Of a stretch of 64,000 nt of DNA, positions 2,830-16,200 are shown in pieces. Numbering within the stretch: the stretch's first letter is position 1; the number at the start of each line of letters is the position of its first letter. Origin of the DNA: Macrostomum lignano. Lineage: Eukaryota. The stretch lies in contig NIVC01000392.1 of NCBI GenBank assembly GCA_002269645.1, positions 62,001 through 126,000 of the forward strand. Direction: 5' to 3'. The notes under the pieces are model-generated. The model saw only the letters and a list, made by a program, of their open reading frames with translations. It had not been told where the DNA came from and did no database searches. Both the position numbers and the translations under genes were made by a program.

Positions 2830-3842
2830 TGAGGTGGGGCGGAGAAGAATTTTTTGGAAGGTTCTGAGTTTTGAAAATTTGCTGACACCAGTGAGGTGGG
2901 GCGGATTCCTCGTTTGAATTTCCGCCGAATGTTGCGTTCGCACGAATAAAACCGGAAAAATCGCGCAGATGAATCACAACGGAATTTCTTCTCCTTTTCT
3001 CCGACTGCCGGGTTCTCAAGTCCGGGGGGAGGGTAGTCGTAATCGTAGCAGAGCGGTCGTTTAGCGGCTCGGGTCGTTCAAAAGGGATGGAACACCGGGA
3101 GATTTCTGGCTCCGTAAATTAATGCGTCGATGTGTTGAACTGGTTACTTTCAGTAGGGTAGTTGCTGCCACCACCGTAATTTACGTATTACGGAACGGAT
3201 AAGTCTCAGAGCTTTCTTTGAGATGAGAACTTGGTTATTTTACGCCCCACGGGCAAATGACTCAATAAAGGCTATGGCTTATGTCAGCAGATTAAATATG
3301 ATTCGGAATAATGGTTATGGGCTTAGTTTATTAATAACAATGCAGGCTTATGATTAGTAATTTTGGTTTTTTAGACGACTGAGATGTTCACGGGCGCCGG
3401 TGCGCTAAATAAAACTTAAGAAAACGAAAATTAGATTAAGGAAAATTAGGTGGTCGAAAAACAAAAGGGGGAGGGTGGGGGAGAAAGGTTAGAAAACAAC
3501 ACCTCGTGCGCAGTTTATAAATAAAGAGAGAATTACATGTACATCGTTTGGAAGTTAAGCTGGACAGGCCGATGGAGCAAAGTTTCAGTGCGTGGAAACT
3601 TTGGGTGGACGGCTTGCCGCAAAGGAAAAGGGAGAAAAAATTTTAACAAAATCCACCGCAAGGGAGCGTGTTTTAGCACCCAGTGGAAACTAAAACAGTG
3701 GCTGGACGGCCACTTGACGGAAAAATGATGCGCTGGAAATTCAATAGATGGATACGAAGGTAAAAAAAATTAATGTTTCTTGGGCATGCAACTTAGCGTA
3801 ATTGTTTGATTAAATGTTCAACAGTGGCACTCGACTGCCACA
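2830..3842 (-). repeat. 3' LTR (1013 bp)
   Basis: Direct repeat of 12201-13212; I saw one substitution and two small indels. Confidence 0.97.
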
Positions 3843-3872
3843 TGCGCGGGGTGGCCGGAGGGTTGCGCAGAG

Positions 3873-4649
3873 TTAGCAGCAGCCGCTGCTTCCTTGGCCA
3901 CCGCGGCGTCCGCGTCCGGCAGCTCGGCCGCCTCGGTTGGCCGGGTGATCTCCTCGAGCAGGATGCTCGGGGTCGGCGTTCCTCGCCGTTCTGGGCCGGT
4001 CGCTAGCTGAGCTGGCCAGCCGGGCGTTCTTGAAAAAGTGCTCAATTCCGGGGGTTATTCCCCGTCGGCGGGCTGCGTGCTCGACAATTAGGGCGAATAG
4101 GCTGCAGCAAGGCCCGATTTGCTGACCGTTGGTATCTCGTCGTAGTCTCTTGCCGATGAGAGCGGCCGTAGTTTCGAGAGCTTGGGTGATGTCCGTCGCT
4201 GGGAACTGCCGGGCGAGGCTGCTCCAGCTGCGGCAGTCGTTAACCGCTTTAGGCCCGGGGCCGCTAGCAACTTCCCAGATGAGCAGCTCCGTTAGCTGCT
4301 GCGTGTGCTCCAGGGCGGCAGCGGTGACGGCCTCCGGGGCGTTGGGCTCGGCGTCTGGCCGTCCTGGATTGGCGTCGTCGTGCCAGTCGGCCGGCGGTAG
4401 AGGGGGCGTTAGGTTTCCGGGTTCTAGCAATCGTACGATGTCGTCCAACTCATCGTGGACGGGCGACGGCGCGGCTCGGACCCTGTCGAGCAGAGGGTCC
4501 AGCCAGGGGTCCGGACTCGGATTAGGAGCGCGCGGCAGGATTGGGTCGACGGCAGGTCCCATCGGAATCCCTCGATCTTCGTTTAGCAGATCTAGCATCG
4601 GTTGCTGACCGGCCGGAGCTCCAGCTCCCCACATCGGGTCGTCGTACAT
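3873..4649 (-). CDS. Gypsy ORF3, 258 aa, unknown function (env position, not env-like)
   Basis: ATG at 4649 (MYDDPMW...) to TAA at 3873; Pro/Asp-rich N-terminus, about 100-aa predicted helical core, RG-rich tail ending GCC; GC-rich like gag-pol. Confidence 0.75.
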   Translation of the reverse strand: MYDDPMWGAGAPAGQQPMLDLLNEDRGIPMGPAVDPILPRAPNPSPDPWLDPLLDRVRAAPSPVHDELDDIVRLLEPGNLTPPLPPADWHDDANPGRPDAEPNAPEAVTAAALEHTQQLTELLIWEVASGPGPKAVNDCRSWSSLARQFPATDITQALETTAALIGKRLRRDTNGQQIGPCCSLFALIVEHAARRRGITPGIEHFFKNARLASSASDRPRTARNADPEHPARGDHPANRGGRAAGRGRRGGQGSSGCC

Positions 4650-5411
4650 GTCAGGCACAGGTGCAGTTGACGCAAAAGGGATAAATAAATATGATGGTGA
4701 GCAAAATATATACAGGATAGTGGATAAATATATACAGGAGTATGAACAAGTTGGCTGGCAGATAAATAACAAATAGGACGAATAGCTAGGAGCGCAGGAA
4801 TTCAATTTACAAATTGAGAAAAATCAGTTCCGAGCCAAGTTGCGGTTTAAATACTCCAAAAAGGTTATCCACTGGCTGGAGAAAGGGTGTTCCAACCAGA
4901 GAAACCAGCCACCACCATACGCGGATGGGGGGGGGTTGAATGAACGAAAGGCCATAAAACAGATAACCGCGCGGCAGGGGGAGGTCCGAAATCAAAGAAT
5001 TGAAATGGGGCGCCTGAGCGGCTCACACAAAATAGGTCGGCGGTTAGGATAGCTGAATAGCGCGTAAACAGATAGAAAAATAAAAGGAGCAATTGGCGGG
5101 CTCCATACTAAGATAATATTGAATGAACAGTTTAGTGACCGGGGCTCCATAAGGAGTTACAGGAGCGGGGGCTCACAAAAGGCACTGGGTAGGGGAGCCC
5201 AACTGGGCAGCCCTTACAACGTTCCCAGGCTCGAGCAAAATCGAACAAAGAGCAGGGGTCGAGTCACCTTAAATGCCCTCCACTGAGGACAAGGCTTAGA
5301 ACAGGGGCGCTTGACCTGAGCGGGCAGAAGACAGTTTGGCCCTTAGGCTTACAAACCGGAAGGAAAATTAAAATACCTACAATTTAATCAAACTGTAAGG
5401 TGTACAAATTC

Positions 5412-6045
5412 ACTGCTTTCCTGAAAGCATTAGAAAAGGGGGGGGGCACTTCTGCACTTTGAACGTGTGCGAAGAAGCTTACAGCAACAGGGATGCGCAA
5501 AATTTAGATGAAAAGAGGAAACGCAAAATAAAGCAATGATCTTACTGTATCGCATTGTTTAATGAGGACGCGTTGATTAAATATTGTCGCATTGGTGCGT
5601 GCTTTCACCGCAAAGCGTAAGGAAATTTACAGAGCGCATGGTGCTGATTAATGAATTCGCATTTAATAAAATTAGCAAAGTTTTACGCTATACATGAGCA
5701 CCGGAAACTATGCACTGCTTTTACCGGAAAGCATAAGGAAAAGAGAAACTGCTTTTAACCCTGAAGCATAAGGAAAAGTACATTGGAACGACGCCTGCTT
5801 TTATCCTGAAAGCATAAGGAAAATGGCAAAATGAAACTGCTTTTAACCCTGAAGCATAAGGAAAAGTACATTGGAACGACGCCTGCTTTTATCCTGAAAG
5901 CATAAGGAAAATGGCAAAATGAAACTGCTTTTAACCCTGAAGCATAAGGAAAAGTACATTGGAACGACGCCTGCTTTTATCCTGAAAGCATAAGGAAAAT
6001 GGCAAAATGAAACTGCTTTTAACCCTGAAGCATAAGGAAAAGTAC
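5412..6045. repeat. Array of about 10 TGCTTT-N4-7-(A)AAGCA hairpin motifs, including 3.4 copies of an 88-bp unit
   Basis: CTGCTTTTAACCCTGAAGC at 5749, 5837, 5925 and 6013, interleaved with CTGCTTTTATCCTGAAAGC; older variants at about 5414, 5592 and 5716. Confidence 0.85.
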
Positions 6046-6212
6046 ATTGAATTTAAACGGAAAATTAAAATCGGCTTTCAGCACAGAGCAGGTGCAGAGA
6101 AAGCTTACAGCAAAATTAGAATTGGAACGCGTTCGCAAATACAACTACTAATAGTAATGCGCATCAGAAGTTAGCAACTTGGCGCAACAGAAAACTCATT
6201 GGTAAATACCTT

Positions 6213-9200
6213 TCAGACTTCGATCTCCATACCGATGTCAGGCAGATCCGGGTCGCCTTCAGACAGCACTTCCGGATGGCGGAGGCTCGGCTCGAACAAT
6301 TGGCTGCCGCGCAGGTCAGGCTGAGCTGCGACTGGCTGTTCTGGAGCGGGCTGATCGGCTGGGTCGACTTCGCTTTCATCGCTCGACTCGTAGGGCAACA
6401 TTGGCCGCTCTGTCTGGCGCGGCGGCTCCTGCGGTCGATCTGCCATCATCTGCGGCACCTTTATGATGTTGTTGCGGTGTACGAGCATTTCAGCTGGGCG
6501 TCCACGTCGGGCTGTTGCTGGCTGGATCCAGTAGGCTACTTCGCCGACCCTCCTGTTGACCTTGTACATGCTTTTGTACGGCCGGTGAAACTTCGGCAGC
6601 TCGCCCAACTCGAGCTTCGGGTTGGCCAGGGAGACCAGATCTCCGGGCTGCAGTTCCACGGGCTTGGGTCGGTTCTCGTAGTACTCTTCACGGCGTTGGA
6701 TCTCAGCTCGCAATCGCTGTCGCACAATCCTTTCAGTCTCGGCCAGTCTACGCTGATGCTTTGCGATGTACTCGGGGAGGTCCGGCGATACGTCCAGGCG
6801 GTCTAGGGTGTTATCGATCGGATACCGGTAGGGCACTCCGTAGATGACGTAATGCGGCGAGAATCCCGTCGTACGATTGACAGCTGATCGCAGGGCTGTC
6901 AAAGCGGCTGGCAGCATCTTGTCCCACTGTTGATGATCTTCGAGAAGACAAGTGAGCACCTTCTTGATATTTTTGTTGCACGATTCAGCTTGACCGTTGG
7001 CCCAGGGCGAGTATGGCGGCGTCGTTGTCTGCCGGATGCCATAGACTTCGCAGAAATGTCGAAACTCGTGCCCTGTGAACTGTTTGCCTTGGTCCGAATG
7101 GATCCACGCGGGGATTCCGGTGATCGGGAAGACTTGCTCTTGCAGGAGAGTTATGATCGTCTTGGCGCGCTGATTCTTCATGGCGTAGGCGAAGGGGTAC
7201 TTTGACGTCGTGTCGACTTAGGTGAGGATGTACTTGTTGCCTCGGTCTGTCGGGTCTCCAGTGGGGCCCATGATGTCGATCGCACATCGCCCATAGATTT
7301 CGCAGACCGGAAATGATTGTACATGCGCTGGGATGCGTCGCCGTCCTTTACTCTGAGTGCAGGTCTGGCAGGAAGCGACATAGTCGGACACGGCCTTGGC
7401 CAGGGCCGGTCGCCAGAACCTCTCGCGCACCTTTGCGATGGTGAGATCTCGGCCCATGTGTCCGCAGTAGGGCGAACCATGCAGGTCGGCAAACACTGTG
7501 GCGTCGAGACTCTTCGGCAGGACGATCCTCGCATTGTCCTCCTCGTCAACATCGTCGAGATGGATGACTAATAGTCCGTCGTCTCGGACTCCCAATTGCT
7601 CATAGAATGCTAAGAGATTTCGCTCATCTCTTGTTAGATTTAATCGCTGATTCAGCGGCGGCTTCGGTTGTCGACTTTCAATTAAGTTGATCATCATCGC
7701 GATGGCGGAGTCAGCACGCTGATGGGTCTGGAGCTCCTCACGTGTGACTGGTCTCGGGATGTGATCAGTTAAGTTCAAAGTTTGGCGTCTGTTAGTCGAA
7801 TTAGTCGGCGCGGCTTCGGCTATGGCGGCATGGTTCGGGGTCTGGAGCTCCCTCCGCATAATCGCTACTCTGGCCGGTTGCCGGGTCGATGAAGAATTTG
7901 AGGGCCGATCCTCATCGGTCATGTCAGCGTCGGCTTCGTCAGCATTAGATTCGTCAGCAGATGAGAGTGAGTCAGCGGAACTGTCGGTATCAAGGCTGAA
8001 TCTCACCTTCTTGAACACAGGACGGCGAGCGGGTTGGCAGCGGTCTTCGCTGGCTGCGCTGTGGTCGCTATCCTCGTCGCCTTCAGCTAGTAGCCGGCGG
8101 CCCCTTGACGGGCAACATGTCGTGCTGCTAAAACTGGTGGGCGACCTCTGTGAGTCCCAATAACGACTGGCAGATGGCCTCGACTTTGTCGCCGGCGGAT
8201 GCAGCTCTGTCAGCGGTTTGCTGTCGGCTGTCGGTGTTGCGGGCGGCGTAGTCTCGTCGTTGGACCCAGTTGATTTCGTCGGCGGCTTTCGTCGGTGACG
8301 GCGGGTCGGTCGCTTCTTGCTCGGTGGAGGACTAGGGTGGCTGCTGTCGTGGACCTTCGGCGCCGCTGCGCCAGTTATCGCGGCTGGCTGCTTACTTTGG
8401 TCCTCGACGGCGGCCTCTCGCTGAGCTTCCTCCAAACATTCAGCGTCGTCCTCAGGCCGTCTTGAGAGGCCGTCGGCGTTTTGGTGCTGACTTGATTTTC
8501 GATGCTGGATCTCGAACTCGAATTCGCTGAGGCGCTGTAGCCATCGTCCAAAGATTCCTTCTTGCTGAGTTCGCCTCAGGATCCAGGTTAATGCGGCATG
8601 ATCGGTTCGGCAGATGAACTTCTTGGCCAGCAGGTAGAATCTGAAGTGTCGCATTCCATCTACGACTGCCAAGAGTTCCTGTTTCGTAATCGGATAACGG
8701 GCTTCGGCCGGTTTGAGTCGCCGGGAGAAATAGCCGATTGGTCGCTCTACTCCATCAGCTTGGCGTTGGCTCAGGCAGGCTCCGATTCTGGTCGCAGAAG
8801 CATCCGTGTCCAGGATAAACATTACTTCCGGATCCTCGCTGAACTGCGGATACGCGAGCACTGATGTCGAAGTCATGGCTGCTTTGAGCTGATCAAACGC
8901 GTCTTGCTGGGCTTTTCCCCATAGACAATTGAAATTTCTAATCTTCTTTTCCTTGATTAGGTCGTGGAGCGGAGCTGCAAGTTCTGCGTAGCCAGGTACG
9001 AATTTAGCATAGTAAGCGCACGTGCAGACAAAACTCTTAAGCTGTCGGGCTGTTCTTGGTCTTGGCCAGGTTTGAATAGCTTCGATTTTCGCCGGGTCGG
9101 TCTTGATTCCATCTTTGGTTACTACGTGTCCCAGGTAGTGGAGGCTTGCCCGAAATAAATGGCACTTCTTGCCTTTGAACTTTAGATTAGCTTCTTGGAC

Positions 9201-9980
9201 TCTCTTAAATACTTCTTCCATATGCCGTAGGTGGTCGTTAAATTTCTTAGAATAGATGATTACGTCATCCAGGTAAGCGATAGCACTTTTGTAGGCAATC
9301 CCGTTGAGCACAGCGTTCATGAGGCGCATGAAGCTGGCTGGAGCTGAACTTAACCCCATTGGCATAACATTGTAGGCGAACTGTCCGCGGTGCAGCGTGG
9401 CAAAGGCAGTCAGGTCTTGATCTTCCGGACGCAGAGGAATCTGGTAGTAGCCGCTATTCAAATCGAATGTACTAAATAGCTGGCTTCCTTCGAGGCTGGC
9501 GAATGCTTCTTGAATATTAGGAATCGGGTACGGAAAATACTCGCACTTTTGATTCAGACTCCGGAAATCTTGTACAATTCTTAGGCTGCCGTCCTTCTTC
9601 GGGATGATCACCAGCGGGGTGTTGTAGCTAGAGAAGCTCGGTCGAATCACGCCTTTGGCCAGCAGATCGTCGAGTAACTGGTCCACCTTGGGTAGCAGGT
9701 GCGGCGGGATCCTTCGCGTTGGGAGATGCACCGGATCTTTGTCCTTCAGTACGATGTTGTGGGTGACCAGATGAGTTCGGCCGAGATCGTGTGGCCCCTG
9801 CGAGAAGATGGTCTGGTACTTTCTCAATAGCTCGATGACTTGAGCGCGCTGGTCACTGGACAGATCCTCGCTGATATCGATCTCCTTAATCCAAGCATCG
9901 GGATCCTCGTCTTGGATTTGATTGACAGAGTCTTCTGATTTCAGCAGCGGGAAGAAATGTAGCCGGGCAGTCTGATTGGT
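6213..9980 (-). pseudogene. pol: Gypsy pol: RT, RNase H, long linker and integrase, with in-frame TAA at 7218-7220
   Basis: YLDD; FILDTDAS...TDH (RNase H); HGSPYCGH...CQTC (IN zinc finger); DDE in AIDIMG / HSDQG / GQAES; NKYILT*VDTTSKYPFAY shows the frame continues across the stop. Confidence 0.93.
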
Positions 9981-10798
9981 CTAGCAATCCCGACTAGGGC
10001 ATTCGCTCGCACTTTGATGGCTGTAGTGCCACGGTTGATCATTTCGATAGCGCCTTCTCCATTAGCCATGGAAATCAGGGCAGGCGCGGCGTCCAAGTGC
10101 TGCACATCTTCTTCGCGACGAGCTGGTTTCAGCGGCTCGATCACGGCGGGTGTACCCTGGTTTTCTTCTCGTCCTTTGGCTAATTTGATTTTAATTCGGG
10201 CAGATGATAACGGCGGCACAGTTGTGCTCTCGGCCGTGTAGATTCTGCACGTTGTAGCTTCAGTTCGCGTGTAGCGAAGCGGTGCGGCAGTGCCGTCCTT
10301 GAAAAACAGCATTCCGGCGGCGAGGTCCAGTGATGTGCTGTACTTCTCCAGGAACTCGAAACCCAGAATGTTGTCATGCGATCCTTTCGCTAGCAGAAAC
10401 TTGACTGTAGGCTCGAAATTACCAATTTTCACTTTAATAGATAGCTGGCCTGCCATTTGAATAGGCTCTCCATTGTAGGTCACGATACGTTGAAGGCAGG
10501 GCTCGATTTGGCCACGCAGGGTCGGGTCGTCAGTACATAGGCGGTGCCAGGTGCTGAATCCTAGGACTTCGCACTTGGACCCGGTATCAAGCAAGAAAGC
10601 AAAATAGCGGCCCTGAATCTCACCAGTTAGAAACGGGTCTCTCCGAGGTCGCTTGGGTGCTAATGGCTGTACAGGTGCGGCGGAGGCGGTCTCAGCAGTG
10701 GCCTGCTGAGTGACTAAAGTCCGCGGCGGGGACTTCAGTGCTGGCTCGGCTGCTGGATGGCGCTGCCCCCGATGGCGCGTCCAGCCGTCCCGTTTCCC
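9941..10798 (-). CDS. Gypsy aspartic protease region (-1 frame from gag), out of frame with RT in this copy
   Basis: FLLDTGSKCEVL and NILGFEFL motifs; frame stops at 9941 while the RT frame opens at 9980. Confidence 0.88.
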   Translation of the reverse strand, partial: GKRDGWTRHRGQRHPAAEPALKSPPRTLVTQQATAETASAAPVQPLAPKRPRRDPFLTGEIQGRYFAFLLDTGSKCEVLGFSTWHRLCTDDPTLRGQIEPCLQRIVTYNGEPIQMAGQLSIKVKIGNFEPTVKFLLAKGSHDNILGFEFLEKYSTSLDLAAGMLFFKDGTAAPLRYTRTEATTCRIYTAESTTVPPLSSARIKIKLAKGREENQGTPAVIEPLKPARREEDVQHLDAAPALISMANGEGAIEMINRGTTAIKVRANALVGIARPIRLPGYISSRC

Positions 10799-12129
10799 GA
10801 GCTGCTGTTGCGCTGGGATGCGGTGCTGGCCGACCGTCGGTGCGGGCACTCATCGGCGCGGTGCTCGCGATTGCACCTGTAACACATGGCATTCTGCCGC
10901 CGCAGCTGATAGGGCGGCGGCCTCGAACTCGACCGTTGCTGCAGCTGCTGCTGCTGCTGACGTTGACCTCCTGCTGGCGGCGTTCTCGGCGGCGGGTTGC
11001 TGCCGTCTCGTGGTTGCTGAAGTCGATGGAACGGTTGCTGCGGCACCATACGCGTGCCAGGTGTCGTAAATTGGGCGCTTCCGTCGGCGCTGCGGCGAGG
11101 AGTCGAGGGTACCAGACATCTGGAGCGTTGGCCCCACGAGTCCCGCGGCTGGTGGCGAGGTTCCCATGGCTCCGGGGCGTCGTTATCGCGCGATCCCCGA
11201 GAGTAGAACTCTCGCATCTCGTTACTCAAAGTTTCAAGTAGGCGTCGCTGCTCTTGCAATGTCTCGGCTTGTTGTTCCATGACTTCCCGCAACCAGTTCT
11301 CCTCGGGCCGAGATGACTTGGCGTCGTGTTGCACCGCAGTGGGCGTCTGACTGTCGTCATCTTCCAGGACCCGGACATGTCTCGCTGCTGGCGGCGGTGC
11401 TACTCGCTGAGCCAGACTAGCTGCTGTCTCCAAGCGTAGCACGGCCCGTCTCGCTGCGGTCAGATTCTGCGGTCGCACCAGGATTAGCTGTTCTCTCGCC
11501 GACTGAGCAATCCGCACTCCCACTGTGAACTGATCCACCAGTTCAGCCTGCTTCTGAACCGGGGTAAAATGCGGAAATGCTCTATCGGCCAGAGCAATTA
11601 GTCGATCGCCATAGTCGTCAACGCTCTCGTTCTTGCCTTGCTGGCAGCTTCGGAACTGCTCCCGGTACTCCAGCGTGTCGGCCACATGCGTAAAACGTTC
11701 AGACAACCGCTGTTTGAACTCACCAAACGTTAGATTATCTGGCAGCTCCATCCTGACGACTGCGGGATAGGTGGTGGCGATGTCCAGATTCACGAGGACC
11801 TCCGCCTTCTTGCGTCTGTCGTCTGTGATCCCGTTGAGCTCGCAACGCTCTTCCAGAGCCTGGATCCAGACGTCGAATTCCTGGTTCTGCGTATACCGCT
11901 GAATCTTGACCGGTTTCGGCGCTGGAGCTCGATCCTGCTGCTGGGGCTGCTGGTACACATGATGATGGTGTTGCGGCTGGCCCAGGCTGGTCTGCTCCAG
12001 TCGCCGGCGCACCTCTTCGGTCACCGCGCGAATCATCTCGTCGTAGGTCGGTCTTGTCGTTGAGTTGTCGGGGCCCGCGGCGTCGGCTGTCGCGTCCGCG
12101 GTCGTTGAATTAGTATTAGTTGAAGCCAT
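10735..12129 (-). CDS. gag: Gypsy Gag (capsid plus single zinc knuckle)
   Basis: ATG at 12129 (MASTNT); capsid-like block QQGKNESVDDYGDRLIALADRAF; CYRCNREHRADEC (CX2CX3HX4C). Confidence 0.9.
   Translation of the reverse strand: MASTNTNSTTADATADAAGPDNSTTRPTYDEMIRAVTEEVRRRLEQTSLGQPQHHHHVYQQPQQQDRAPAPKPVKIQRYTQNQEFDVWIQALEERCELNGITDDRRKKAEVLVNLDIATTYPAVVRMELPDNLTFGEFKQRLSERFTHVADTLEYREQFRSCQQGKNESVDDYGDRLIALADRAFPHFTPVQKQAELVDQFTVGVRIAQSAREQLILVRPQNLTAARRAVLRLETAASLAQRVAPPPAARHVRVLEDDDSQTPTAVQHDAKSSRPEENWLREVMEQQAETLQEQRRLLETLSNEMREFYSRGSRDNDAPEPWEPRHQPRDSWGQRSRCLVPSTPRRSADGSAQFTTPGTRMVPQQPFHRLQQPRDGSNPPPRTPPAGGQRQQQQQLQQRSSSRPPPYQLRRQNAMCYRCNREHRADECPHRRSASTASQRNSSSGNGTAGRAIGGSAIQQPSQH
10752..10798 (-). 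promoter_or_regulatory. Programmed -1 ribosomal frameshift signal (gag-pro)
   Basis: G GGA AAC at 10798-10792 in the gag frame, 6-nt spacer, GCTGGA...TCCAGC stem; the -1 frame reads GKRDGW into the protease ORF. Confidence 0.8.
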
Positions 12130-12177: not shown

Positions 12178-12199
12178 AATCCCACTTAGCTGACCACCA
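12178..12199 (-). promoter_or_regulatory. Primer-binding site, tRNA-Leu(CAA)-like with bulges
   Basis: TGGTGgTCAGctAAGTGGGATT, 1 nt after the LTR, versus TGGTGTCAGAAGTGGGATT, the complement of a typical eukaryotic tRNA-Leu(CAA) 3' end. Confidence 0.7.
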
Positions 12200-12200
12200 A

Positions 12201-13212
12201 TGAGGTGGGGCGGAGAAGAATTTTTTGGAAGGTTCTGAGTTTTGAAAATTTGCTGACACCAGTGAGGTGGGGCGGATTCCTCGTTTGAATTTCCGCCGAA
12301 TGTTGCGTTCGCACGAATAAAACCGGAAAAATCGCGCAGATGAATCACAACGGAATTTCTTCTCCTTTTCTCCGACTGCCGGGTTCTCAAGTCCGGGGGG
12401 AGGGTAGTCGTAATCGTAGCAGAGCGGTCGTTTAGCGGCTCGGGTCGTTCAAAAGGGATGGAACACCGGGAGGTTTCTGGCTCCGTAAATTAATGCGTCG
12501 ATGTGTTGAACTGGTTACTTTCAGTAGGGTAGTTGCTGCCACCACCGTAATTTACGTATTACGGAACGGATAAGTCTCAGAGCTTTCTTTGAGATGAGAA
12601 CTTGGTTATTTTACGCCCCACGGGCAAATGACTCAATAAAGGCTATGGCTTTATGTCAGCAGATTAAATATGATTCGGAATAATGGTTATGGGCTTAGTT
12701 TATTAATAACAATGCAGGCTTATGATTAGTAATTTTGGTTTTTTAGACGACAGATGTTCACGGGCGCCGGTGCGCTAAATAAAACTTAAGAAAACGAAAA
12801 TTAGATTAAGGAAAATTAGGTGGTCGAAAAACAAAAGGGGGAGGGTGGGGGAGAAAGGTTAGAAAACAACACCTCGTGCGCAGTTTATAAATAAAGAGAG
12901 AATTACATGTACATCGTTTGGAAGTTAAGCTGGACAGGCCGATGGAGCAAAGTTTCAGTGCGTGGAAACTTTGGGTGGACGGCTTGCCGCAAAGGAAAAG
13001 GGAGAAAAAATTTTAACAAAATCCACCGCAAGGGAGCGTGTTTTAGCACCCAGTGGAAACTAAAACAGTGGCTGGACGGCCACTTGACGGAAAAATGATG
13101 CGCTGGAAATTCAATAGATGGATACGAAGGTAAAAAAAATTAATGTTTCTTGGGCATGCAACTTAGCGTAATTGTTTGATTAAATGTTCAACAGTGGCAC
13201 TCGACTGCCACA
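12201..13212 (-). repeat. 5' LTR (1012 bp)
   Basis: TG...CA; on the minus strand, TATA-like TATTTATAAA at 12893-12884 and AATAAA at 12704-12699. Confidence 0.97.
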
Positions 13213-16200
13213 ATATTACCAATTCCAGAACCAGAATCGGCTCGGAATTCCAAGAAAAACAGCAGTATATCCCGATCAAAAAAAGTTGGCTTAATTATGT
13301 CTTGAAGATGTCTTGCATAAGCTAGAAAGATGTCTTTAAGACGTCTTATAATTGACTTAATTCGGTCTAAAAATTGGCTCCTTGCAACACTTGTAGACAG
13401 CTTAGAGATAACTTAAAGACGTCTTAAGACATCTTCAAGACATCTTAAAATCTGCTCAAAGACATCTTCCAGATGACTTGCAAAAGATGTCTTGCCCAAG
13501 ATCATTTAAGAAATGCTGTTACCATGGTAATCAAAATTGTTTAAAAGAAATGACAAAAAGTATTACAGCACTCTTTTATTGGTTTCATTTCAGGCAACAT
13601 TGATATTAAAGAAAAGCTTTTTGAGCTTCTAATTATGGTTCAATGCAATTTATCATTTATTTTTTGATTTTATAAAAGGTACAGATTAAAAGTCACAAAA
13701 GCAATTAAAATGGTGAATCGAAAACAAGTAAAAATACAATATTTAATAAAAGTGCAAAAATACTCAATTGTATAAATATATAATGCATCATACCCAGTCA
13801 TTGCATGAAAAGACTTACTTAATGCAATAATGACTAAGTTGCTCATTGCTTGGTAAAAAGCTTGCTGTCAATTGATCCTTTGCTAGCCAATTACTAGTTT
13901 AGAATTGGCTTAATCCAGGAAGATTCAAGACCCAGGTTAGCTTGCACAATGATAAATAGCATGCATTGATAACAGTGGCTGAAAAGGATAAATTTAAAAA
14001 GGGTTATAGTTTATAGTTGAGTTTTAATAATTTCAAATTTATAAGTAAAAAGAATTAGATATTAAAAAATAAATAAAGAATAATTCTACTTTAAAACATT
14101 TATAAACAAATTACCTATAAGCTATACAAATTCAATAGCTTAGCCTTAGGCTCAAATATGTAGGCTAAGGCTTAGGGGCCTAGGGCCTAATCTCAAGGCA
14201 AAATAAAAAGATTGGAATGCCAATTTTATAAAACTTCTAACTTCTAAGTATACTAACTCTATTTTTAAATCTATTAGGCCTAGGCCTAATCCAACTTTTG
14301 AATATGATATAATAAATTAGGCCTAGGCCTATATATAGCCATTTTAGGCTATCTATTTTTTATTTTAAATTTTCATTGGCCTAGCCTTTAGACAATGGCA
14401 CCTATAATATATATATAGTATATTGAAAGCATATGTACATTGCCATTAGCCACTAATAAAGGCAAAGAAAAAGGCAAAAGCAATAATATAGGGCTTAAGC
14501 CTAAGGCTTAGCCCAAGGAAATTATTTAATTTTGACATAAAAATCAAAACAAAATTTTTAGGCTTAAGGATAGAGCTAAGAGGCCTACAACAAATTAGTC
14601 TTGATAAGCCAATCAATAGGCCTAGCTATGAAATTCTAACTTTAAATAAAAAAACCAGAAGTAAGTAAATAAAACACTTTATACTTATAGGCCATAGTTA
14701 AAGCCTGAATCTTTTAAGGCCTAACTTAAAAAAATTAAACATGACTTTGCATTAGTTAACTAGTGCTAATCTTAGCTAGGCATAGTATGCCATAGGCTTA
14801 GATAGATTGGCCTAACTAAAAGAACATTGTATTTATATTTTAGTTTAGTCTAATTTAAAATTATAATTTGGAAATCAGGATATTACAATTCTATTGCACA
14901 AAGATATAAAACTATATTCTGGGTTCTTTGTTTGCACCTGGCATTAGGATGGGAAATCAAATCCTGGAAGCTATCCAAGGAAGGACTAAGTAAAAGACTA
15001 GGAAGGTCTAACTTGACGATAGTAAATGTAAATCATCACTAATACACTATCACAGTAAGTAAGGATAAACCTAGGGTAGGGCTTAGGCCAGAAATCTATA
15101 TAGGCTATAGTAGCCAATGAAAAATCGAAACTTATCACACAAGATAGAAACAAGTGTTCGACAATTAGGCCCCTAATCATTAATTGATGATCATTAATAA
15201 TCATGCCCGGGCCGCCCGGGGTTGTCTTTAGTTCTTTTTAAAAATGATGTTCCGCCATTTTGTTTTTGGCTGTTTTGAACAAAAGCATCACCGATAAGAA
15301 TATATAATGCATCTTTGTCTATTTTTAATTCTGAGATGTTTAGATTTTTGTAAATATTTTTACCATCATCAATATTGTTGTAATTAAACTTTGTCTTTAA
15401 GTTTATAACGACCCAATATAAAAAATTGCATATATTGCGCTTCAAAAAAGCTTAAAGGGTTATTTAAAATAAGCACACCTTCCACAGACTACAATTCAAC
15501 GAAAATTAGCGATAACCCAAGACGCCCAAAATTGTGATAATTGCGCATTAATTACAATTGAATTTGCAAAATTAGGCAATTATTGCAAATTAATTGGCAA
15601 TTGATTGTCAATCTTGATAAGCAAATTATAATTTAATTGCAATCTCGACAAGCAGATTACAATTAGATTGCAATTGTGACAATTAAATTGTAATTAGCAC
15701 AAGAGGATTGGCAATCAAATTACAATTTGCTTGAGCAATTCTGATTGTAATTTCGCTTTTTATCTTGCTACTACTAGTAATACATACAATTAATATACTG
15801 CATTGATTTTTGTTTCATAGGAGAGTAGAGTACTCAGTTAATTGATTCCCTCATACACATAAATACACACTTGCCCATTAGAAAATAACAAACAAGTTCA
15901 GAAAACAAAATCAACTTATGCCAATTGCAACCAACCACTTCAACAAAACATTAAATTGACAACATTTTTAGCAAGACTCAAGATACTATTTATATTTTAA
16001 TGAATTAATTAGAGCTAATGCATTTTAGGATTATGGTGAGGAAATACGTTTTTGCAGCAATAAATAAATCAGTCTGTTGAGCTGGTCTGTTTTTGTAGCA
16101 ATAAATTGGGCCATTGGTTCTTCCTTCCTTCCTTAGGACCCTGGATGGGCTGCTGCTCCTTTGCTAGTCTGTTGAGCTAGAAAAATTAAAATAGTTTTGT

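Follow-up and report, generated by a model that had tools for sequence, protein, structure and literature searches.

The window analysed here, the whole 64,000-nt stretch of the Macrostomum lignano assembly GCA_002269645.1 (contig NIVC01000392.1, positions 62,001–126,000 of the forward strand), contains a 10.4-kb Gypsy element on its minus strand, to which all features of the element given below belong. The element has the LTRs, the gag gene and the pol order PR-RT-RH-IN of a Ty3/Gypsy LTR retrotransposon. Its 5′ LTR (12201..13212) and 3′ LTR (2830..3842, TG...CA) are 99.6% identical over 1014 nt and are bordered by a 4-bp target duplication, atat, at 2826–2829 and 13213–13216. A primer-binding site at 12180..12199, which we take to be tRNA-Leu-like, is followed by an intact gag with a CCHC knuckle (10735..12129; PF03732) and by pol, which encodes protease, RT, RNase H and integrase (6213..10849); from a GGGAAAC slippery site within gag (10792–10798), we infer a programmed −1 shift. 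The two lesions that the earlier note had ascribed to pol are a frameshift near 9960–9980, at the protease/RT boundary, and an in-frame stop in the integrase at 7218–7220, and sister copies have an uninterrupted pol frame of at least 1545 aa. Between the RNase H and the integrase zinc finger, at 7750–8450, lies a low-complexity stretch of ~230 aa rich in Pro, Ser, Arg and acidic residues, which is in frame in sisters. Downstream of pol are a 1.56-kb non-coding spacer (4650..6212), which contains 88-nt tandem repeats at 5728–6049 and is 66–80% identical across subfamilies, then ORF3 (3873..4649), and then a conserved C-rich motif ahead of the 3′ LTR (3843..3872).

Several other features of the locus deserve mention. 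In the window (3843–3872) and at the homologous sites of copies L031–L056, L114, L115 and L134, the 3′ LTR is not preceded by a polypurine tract; a conserved C/G-rich motif occupies its place, in the other subfamilies printed as in the window, and a short inverted repeat forms the start of the LTR. Priming of the plus strand may depart from the standard mode. Each LTR also holds, ~50 nt from its end (2876–2927 and 12247–12298), an inner copy of the LTR end plus a primer-site-like sequence. A related LTR at 1813–2828 (90% identical over 1813–2219) adjoins the 3′ LTR; the element seems to have integrated at the border of this relative. On the plus strand, at 980–1796, exon-like open frames, including 201 aa without a Pfam match and an 18-nt repeat of the EKQREL type, suggest that the elements lie inside an intron of a host gene.

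ORF3 runs in gag–pol sense from an ATG at 4649 to a TAA at 3873, downstream of the pol stop (6213) and upstream of the 3′ LTR, and its 258 codons contain no internal stop, so that the intact third frame described in the earlier note is borne out. When the region was shuffled 2000 times in dinucleotide blocks, an ATG-initiated frame of this length arose twice; the length of ORF3 is therefore not a product of chance. We refer to the ORF3 of the window as B type, as distinct from an A type that other copies carry instead. Its N-terminal arm (aa 1–105; 4335..4649), delimited by charge and alignment, is acidic and Pro-rich, as had been claimed, and lacks a hydrophobic run; all 12 B proteins examined have a net charge between −7 and −20 over their first 100 aa, and short motifs are conserved along it (a DDPMWG-like start, PAPxPSP, WLxxxLDxV, DxxRLLE and TPPLPPxxW). 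The core, domain B (aa 106–217, 112 aa; 3999..4334), delimited by structure prediction and alignment and noted previously as helical-looking, is predicted to be a five-helix bundle (AlphaFold2; mean pLDDT 83.6, pTM 0.76). The tail (aa 218–258; 3876..3998), which had been called RGG-like, keeps its Arg/Gly character, with 3–10 Arg among the last 30 residues in 22 of 22 proteins, and is common, in frame, to the A-type twins of the subfamily. This basic tail fits nucleic-acid binding or nuclear import, and it is the only part of the protein that would point to RNA or DNA binding.

The membrane-related claims of the earlier note fared unevenly. There is indeed no transmembrane stretch: the highest 19-residue hydropathy is 0.90 in ORF3 and 0.63–1.73 across the family, being below 1.6 in 21 of 22 proteins, and ORF3 has no transmembrane anchor of the kind found in retroviral and errantiviral Env. 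The furin consensus is R-X-K/R-R. The note had seen no obvious furin site, but residues 168–171 (RLRR) match the consensus, although the motif is not conserved and would have no bearing on a protein that is not secreted. As for the C-terminal CC, it exists in the window's own subfamily and is not conserved beyond it, occurring in one of 12 B-type proteins from different copies. Because Gly-2 is also absent in 22 of 22 proteins, the proposed lipidation is unsupported, and so is the suggested membrane or cell-to-cell movement role.

In its own genome, ORF3 has at least 94 matches at 27–100% identity, and domain A has at least 111, with 120 and 127 candidates scored, respectively; because the match lists comprise 120, 127 and 148 scored candidates and the assembly holds duplicate loci, these counts are not independent. 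According to the available portion of PMC12801592, M. lignano is a hidden allotetraploid whose assembly is redundant, and thus all copy counts given here include duplicates. Forty stretches of up to 10 kb around ORF3 matches were taken for comparison; in most of them, ORF3 is found downstream of an integrase and upstream of an LTR, with Pol 90–99% and ORF3 30–45% identical to those of the window's element. The closest sister (L031) differs from the window's ORF3 at 12 sites, of which 10 are silent and two are replacements. The homologous frames are open at ~25–50% ORF3 identity, with a core dN/dS of ~0.2–0.4, where Pol is above 90% identical, and in these stretches, which are biased towards good matches, 36 of 41 B domains are full-length in one frame, 28 of those being stop-free. 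Among 19 B core sequences, the median pS is 0.68 and the median pN 0.44, with pN the smaller of the two in all 171 pairs (pairs that are not independent) and a median dN/dS of 0.40 over the 105 unsaturated pairs; four close B pairs gave pS/pN values of 0.185/0.073, 0.079/0.039, 0.332/0.101 and 0.246/0.067. The A core behaves similarly (median pS 0.73, pN 0.34; pN below pS in 105 of 105 likewise non-independent pairs; median dN/dS 0.27 over 36 unsaturated pairs). The earlier note held that decay in sister copies, or a dN/dS near 1, would speak against an accessory gene; what we observed is purifying selection, and we are nearly certain that ORF3 is a real, selected gene. Its divergence is nevertheless far greater than that of RT, for which 12 copies have a pN of 0.002–0.018 and a pS of 0.01–0.51: across subfamilies, ORF3 and U3 retain 54–61% nucleotide identity, whereas RT retains 89–99%. 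Some RTs are far closer to each other than their ORF3s are, as in L036 (RT pS 0.08 versus ORF3 pS 0.64–0.71), which demonstrates recombination.

The family of this non-Env accessory ORF, which the earlier note did not recognise, matches none that is known, and a known host gene or env/ORF family, which the note had named as a contrary outcome, did not emerge from sequence or profile searches. Against 5.8 billion proteins, none of 4435 candidates matched; the ESM Atlas held nothing for the B core or for an A+B fusion described below; no Pfam family recurred among the 22 B or the 15 A proteins compared (best E 0.016), GDSL, DEDDy, J-domain and RING being absent from ORF3 by Pfam; PDB sequences gave no match for A or B; and the A profile was unmatched among viral contigs. 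All relatives found among 1.84 and 5.8 billion proteins are M. lignano records. Three weak profile matches outside the flatworm (P0004–P0006) comprised short repeats only and were taken as chance. Foldseek found no confident match in PDB or BFVD (best E 0.73, 0.80 and 1.8), and neither F-type nor gB-type fusogens were matched in Pfam, PDB or BFVD, the predicted core being a 112-aa all-helical bundle. In a structural search, the best Z was 9.3 for B (3swh_B, rmsd 3.3 over 112 aligned residues; 3zc0_A, rmsd 3.0 over 103, 4% identity) and 6.9 for A, both below the tool's helical-bundle mark of ~13; the Bcl-2-like, Translin, MUN/CATCHR, CID and MIF4G folds compared reached Z 9.3 or less, as generic helical bundles. 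A likeness to the Bcl-2 BH1 motif, seen by eye, was unsupported by the fold searches. Domain A (model pLDDT 82.3) matched no known family either. The profile comparison of A with B was not significant (E 0.18–0.24). Both models, however, align with identical segments in a number of solved chains; their predicted topology is likely to be shared. The predicted A–B complex scored 0.02, in a run that did not use alignments and with an uncertain partner fold.

How might ORF3 be expressed? A TATA-like box (TATTTAAA; 4846..4853) lies 204 nt before its start codon, and further conserved non-coding motifs, defined by alignment, lie upstream of the box (4854..5080). Within the box, a TAT.T column is invariant in 13 of 13 aligned upstream regions; with a pattern picked after viewing the alignment, TATA-like matches occur in 15 of 18 upstream windows, 76–218 nt before the start codon, versus 5 of 36 control windows, and the majority of subfamilies have such a module ahead of ORF3. 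We infer from these signals a candidate internal promoter ahead of ORF3. An internal promoter for ORF3 has been demonstrated in Tor elements, according to the available part of PMC4402516. None of the runs that contain ORF3 is recorded as RNA. Contigs of four sequencing runs that we guessed to be RNA cover parts of ORF3 with 1–3 differences, although such contigs would neither reveal transcript starts nor prove transcription; one 1152-nt contig from a run guessed in the same way carries the subfamily flanks around ~535 other letters, as expected of an A twin. No splice joint into ORF3 was present among the 15 joints shown of 55, and a candidate acceptor for splicing or trans-splicing, 108 nt upstream of the ATG, was rejected because its position is not conserved.

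The larger result is that the ORF3 slot is exchangeable. Three copies with the LTR, spacer and ORF3 tail of the window's element carry the domain A core instead of domain B. The swappable cassette in the window spans 4025..4663; L062 and L063 have in its place a 529-nt A-type cassette that cannot be aligned with it, within flanks that are 91–97% identical. Such A/B twins occur in six subfamilies, with flanks 91–97% identical and integrases 0.5–6% apart, the A copy of one pair being without the spacer. The junctions are sharp, lying at most ~60 nt from the start codon on one side and close to the core end on the other, their positions vary by subfamily, and the shared tail stays in frame with either cassette. 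Among 101 listed copies selected by integrase (at least 71% identity), the 9 kb downstream contain A in 50 cases and B in 32, 19 have neither and none has both; in the next family (53% integrase identity), A or B occurs in 0 of 47 listed matches. Thirteen of the 19 copies with neither were examined: remnants of B are present in two and a remnant of A in one, a third cargo, C, is found in two others, the region is missing from one, and the remaining seven have nothing within 7 kb. Cargo C occupies the ORF3 slot at L122:4128–4700 and L126:2329–2901, with homologues in L146–L152; it has no relationship to A or B detectable by profile comparison. In sister Gypsy families, Pol ends in an orphan C-terminal extension that is homologous to C (at least 64 matches), and thus C was probably gained by recombination. 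Because at least one young-looking copy, L121, lacks ORF3 and the two C copies have neither form, neither A nor B is needed in cis.

Other arrangements were also seen. L041/L042 (G000 C1081:316674–336673) are tandem B-type elements that share one LTR, and L120 contains two A cassettes in tandem. In L115 and L114, which are A-type copies, the spacer is deleted and ORF3 directly follows pol. At L049:7300–7800, a broken B-type ORF lies by rDNA-like sequence (identified by eye), with many repeats on few contigs.

Both forms have been active recently: pol is uninterrupted over at least 1545 aa in seven B and four A copies of 35, most of them with LTR parts 99–100% alike. To place the two forms on the history of the element, we used 54 LTRs, 31 from B and 23 from A copies; of 68 domains, 14 were excluded because they had no full LTR or domain. 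The A/B label changes 18 times on the LTR tree, versus a shuffled mean of 17.6–17.8, and therefore A and B are distributed at random over the tree. The cassettes themselves are nevertheless subfamily-specific, with 84–99% identity inside a U3 cluster and a median of 60% between clusters. Cassette distance tracks LTR distance for A (rho 0.47) and for B (rho 0.61), with 0 of 499 permutations each, for 19 A and 27 B after eight long branches had been removed. Over the six twin pairs, few as they are, A distance tracks B distance (rho 0.63, 6/720), and B distance is tied neither to the upstream spacer (rho 0.43, 131/720) nor to the integrase (89/720). This subfamily-specific co-divergence, together with the scattered label, indicates that A and B have both been carried through splits so old that silent sites are almost saturated, while the flanks were still exchanged. 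We consider it very probable that A and B constitute a true dimorphism.

Copies of both domains have outlived their elements. An intact A+B fusion of 291 aa is present at L071–L073 (G000 C616, C2108 and C1020), three copies of one insertion with 3–5 kb of common flank (91–98% identical), in an element that is missing RT and has a broken gag and integrase. The fusion ORF (873 nt) shows 0.7–1.0% differences and no indels among the copies, versus 1.4–2.6% and 8–12 indels in its neighbours, and its pN/pS is ~0.3 (6–9 changes). Similarly, a lone intact A gene is found at L078–L080 (G000 C292, C1863 and C4115), three copies of one locus, where a 100-nt integrase remnant and an LTR piece are all that is left of the element; the promoter module, including the conserved upstream motifs, is kept, and one replacement was counted among few changes. 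Both genes are annotated as hypothetical genes. These observations suggest host retention of the fusion and of the lone A gene, with a selection signal that the few substitutions make weak.

Accessory genes near the 3′ LTR with an internal promoter are known from the foamy viruses (tas/bet), and Rev has an Arg-rich nucleic-acid-binding stretch; these belong to the Retroviridae, and we found no homology between them and ORF3. Among Gypsy elements, the available text on C. elegans Cer1 (PMC10309623) reports that a non-Env ORF3, CERV, is needed for RNA export. According to the same text, CERV differs from ORF3 in being ~517 aa long, spliced to a gag exon, furnished with a Cys loop and a G-protein-like domain, and known in one form (PMC10309623); our searches brought up no similarity between the two. 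If ORF3 resembles the export factors CERV and Rev, its Arg-rich tail is the only feature that points that way. The ORF3s of bdelloid rotifers, as far as described in the part of PMC5408684 available, are alike in occupying a modular slot with varied cargo across element types; there the cargo is recognisable (GDSL esterase, DEDDy exonuclease, Env), whereas in M. lignano orphan domains alternate in two forms per subfamily. In the Tor elements of Oikopleura, by contrast, ORF3 is a membrane glycoprotein Env (PMC4402516, available part), and the M. lignano element is also unlike the flatworm errantiviruses, for which the accessible text of PMC13524379 gives a gag-env-pol order with a gB-type Env. 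The sORF2/FAST-like proteins of the MDG1 group resemble ORF3 in being small extra ORFs of Env-less Gypsy elements; they have, in the portion of 10.1101/2025.03.14.642691 available, a transmembrane helix and often a myristoylation motif (MGxxxS/T), neither of which ORF3 has. VANC of the Arabidopsis VANDAL transposons is likewise an accessory protein that diverges together with family-specific non-coding DNA and its tandem repeats, but it belongs to a plant DNA transposon, acts on DNA methylation and has no sequence link to ORF3 (PMC5735166, in the part available). By this analogy, the co-divergence of ORF3 with the LTR would be compatible with a cognate-activator model. The available portion of PMC12801592, which names Gmr1/Osvaldo, Mag, CsRN1 and Mdg3 clades for M. 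lignano, mentions neither an extra ORF nor the gene ids of the fusion and the lone A gene, and two short motifs of the element are absent from its supplements, which hold six family consensus sets only. The literature searched gave no account of the ORF3 family or of alternating ORF3 cassettes. Non-env third genes are known in Gypsy elements; ORF3 is a new orphan protein family in a known position.

What, then, might ORF3 do? Our tentative reading, to which we attach somewhat less than even confidence, is that ORF3 is an intracellular, subfamily-specific regulator that acts in trans, is produced from the predicted internal promoter and exists as A and B cassettes. A short mRNA would start below the TATA-like box; the Arg/Gly tail would take the protein to nucleic acid or to the nucleus, and the helical core would bind a host or element protein. 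The acidic arm of B would then recruit host machinery and thereby increase transcription or export of the RNA of its own subfamily, in the manner of Rev and CERV, foamy-virus Tas or VANC, and A, which has no acidic arm, would provide either a second step or a brake. Copies of the two forms would affect one another in trans and recombine within their common flanks, and both forms would thereby be kept in each subfamily. That the cassettes co-diverge with the LTR speaks for a target within the element. A different and rather unlikely role is counter-defence, in which A and B would oppose a host restriction or small-RNA factor and the rarer form would escape the host response. An arms race would be expected to give the fast protein change observed (pN 0.33–0.50, against the very low values for RT), as well as the swapping of cassettes and the third cargo, and the listed A and B copies are balanced in number; selection, however, is still net purifying, an antagonist directed at the host need not co-diverge with the element's own LTR, and it would be odd for a host to keep an anti-host protein.

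The mutual exclusion of A and B on one element could instead reflect a contest of element against element, through copy-number control, exclusion or a poison and antidote, with the host keeping some copies as restriction genes. The intact fusion and lone A gene at old, dead loci, with fewer changes than their flanks, agree with this proposal, which we hold to be distinctly doubtful: few substitutions make the signal of host selection a weak one, each locus is represented by three duplicates that are related to one another, and a pure brake is hard to keep under selection at the level of the element. That active masters carry both A and B, and that single-form copies are products of repeated deletion, would account for the existence of the fusion, for the congruent A and B distances and for junctions that vary between subfamilies. 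It is very improbable nonetheless, because none of the 101 listed integrase-selected copies carries both forms, in 81 stretches scanned by profile the two occurred together at the fusion locus alone, no A remnant lies beside B or the reverse, young, unbroken copies of each single form exist, and the fusion represents one dead insertion. Hardly tenable is the idea that ORF3 spreads the element from cell to cell as a lipid-anchored movement or fusion protein; the position of ORF3 in the place of Env and the terminal CC of the window's subfamily would suit it, but the CC is confined to that subfamily, Gly-2 is lacking, hydropathy is low in nearly all family members, and sORF2/FAST proteins, according to the available portion of 10.1101/2025.03.14.642691, need a transmembrane helix and measure 60–210 aa, compared with the 258 aa of ORF3.

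A further idea, which we regard as speculative and on balance unlikely, is that of a two-part retrotransposon, in which each subfamily would persist as two partner elements that encode the A half and the B half of an accessory machine, the A+B fusion being the same machine in one protein. The partners would complement one another in trans, would exchange their flanks by recombination in the way of a pseudo-autosomal region and would have been inherited together through many subfamily splits, the host having twice kept the gene from dead copies, possibly as a control. The A and B forms of ORF3 represent a long-lived balanced dimorphism within a transposon lineage, of which we found no earlier description, and they allow a direct test of whether the copies of a retrotransposon cooperate or compete via trans-acting proteins. 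LTR reporters and transgenesis already work in this animal (PMC12801592, in the part available), and the two candidate host-captured copies provide a second handle.
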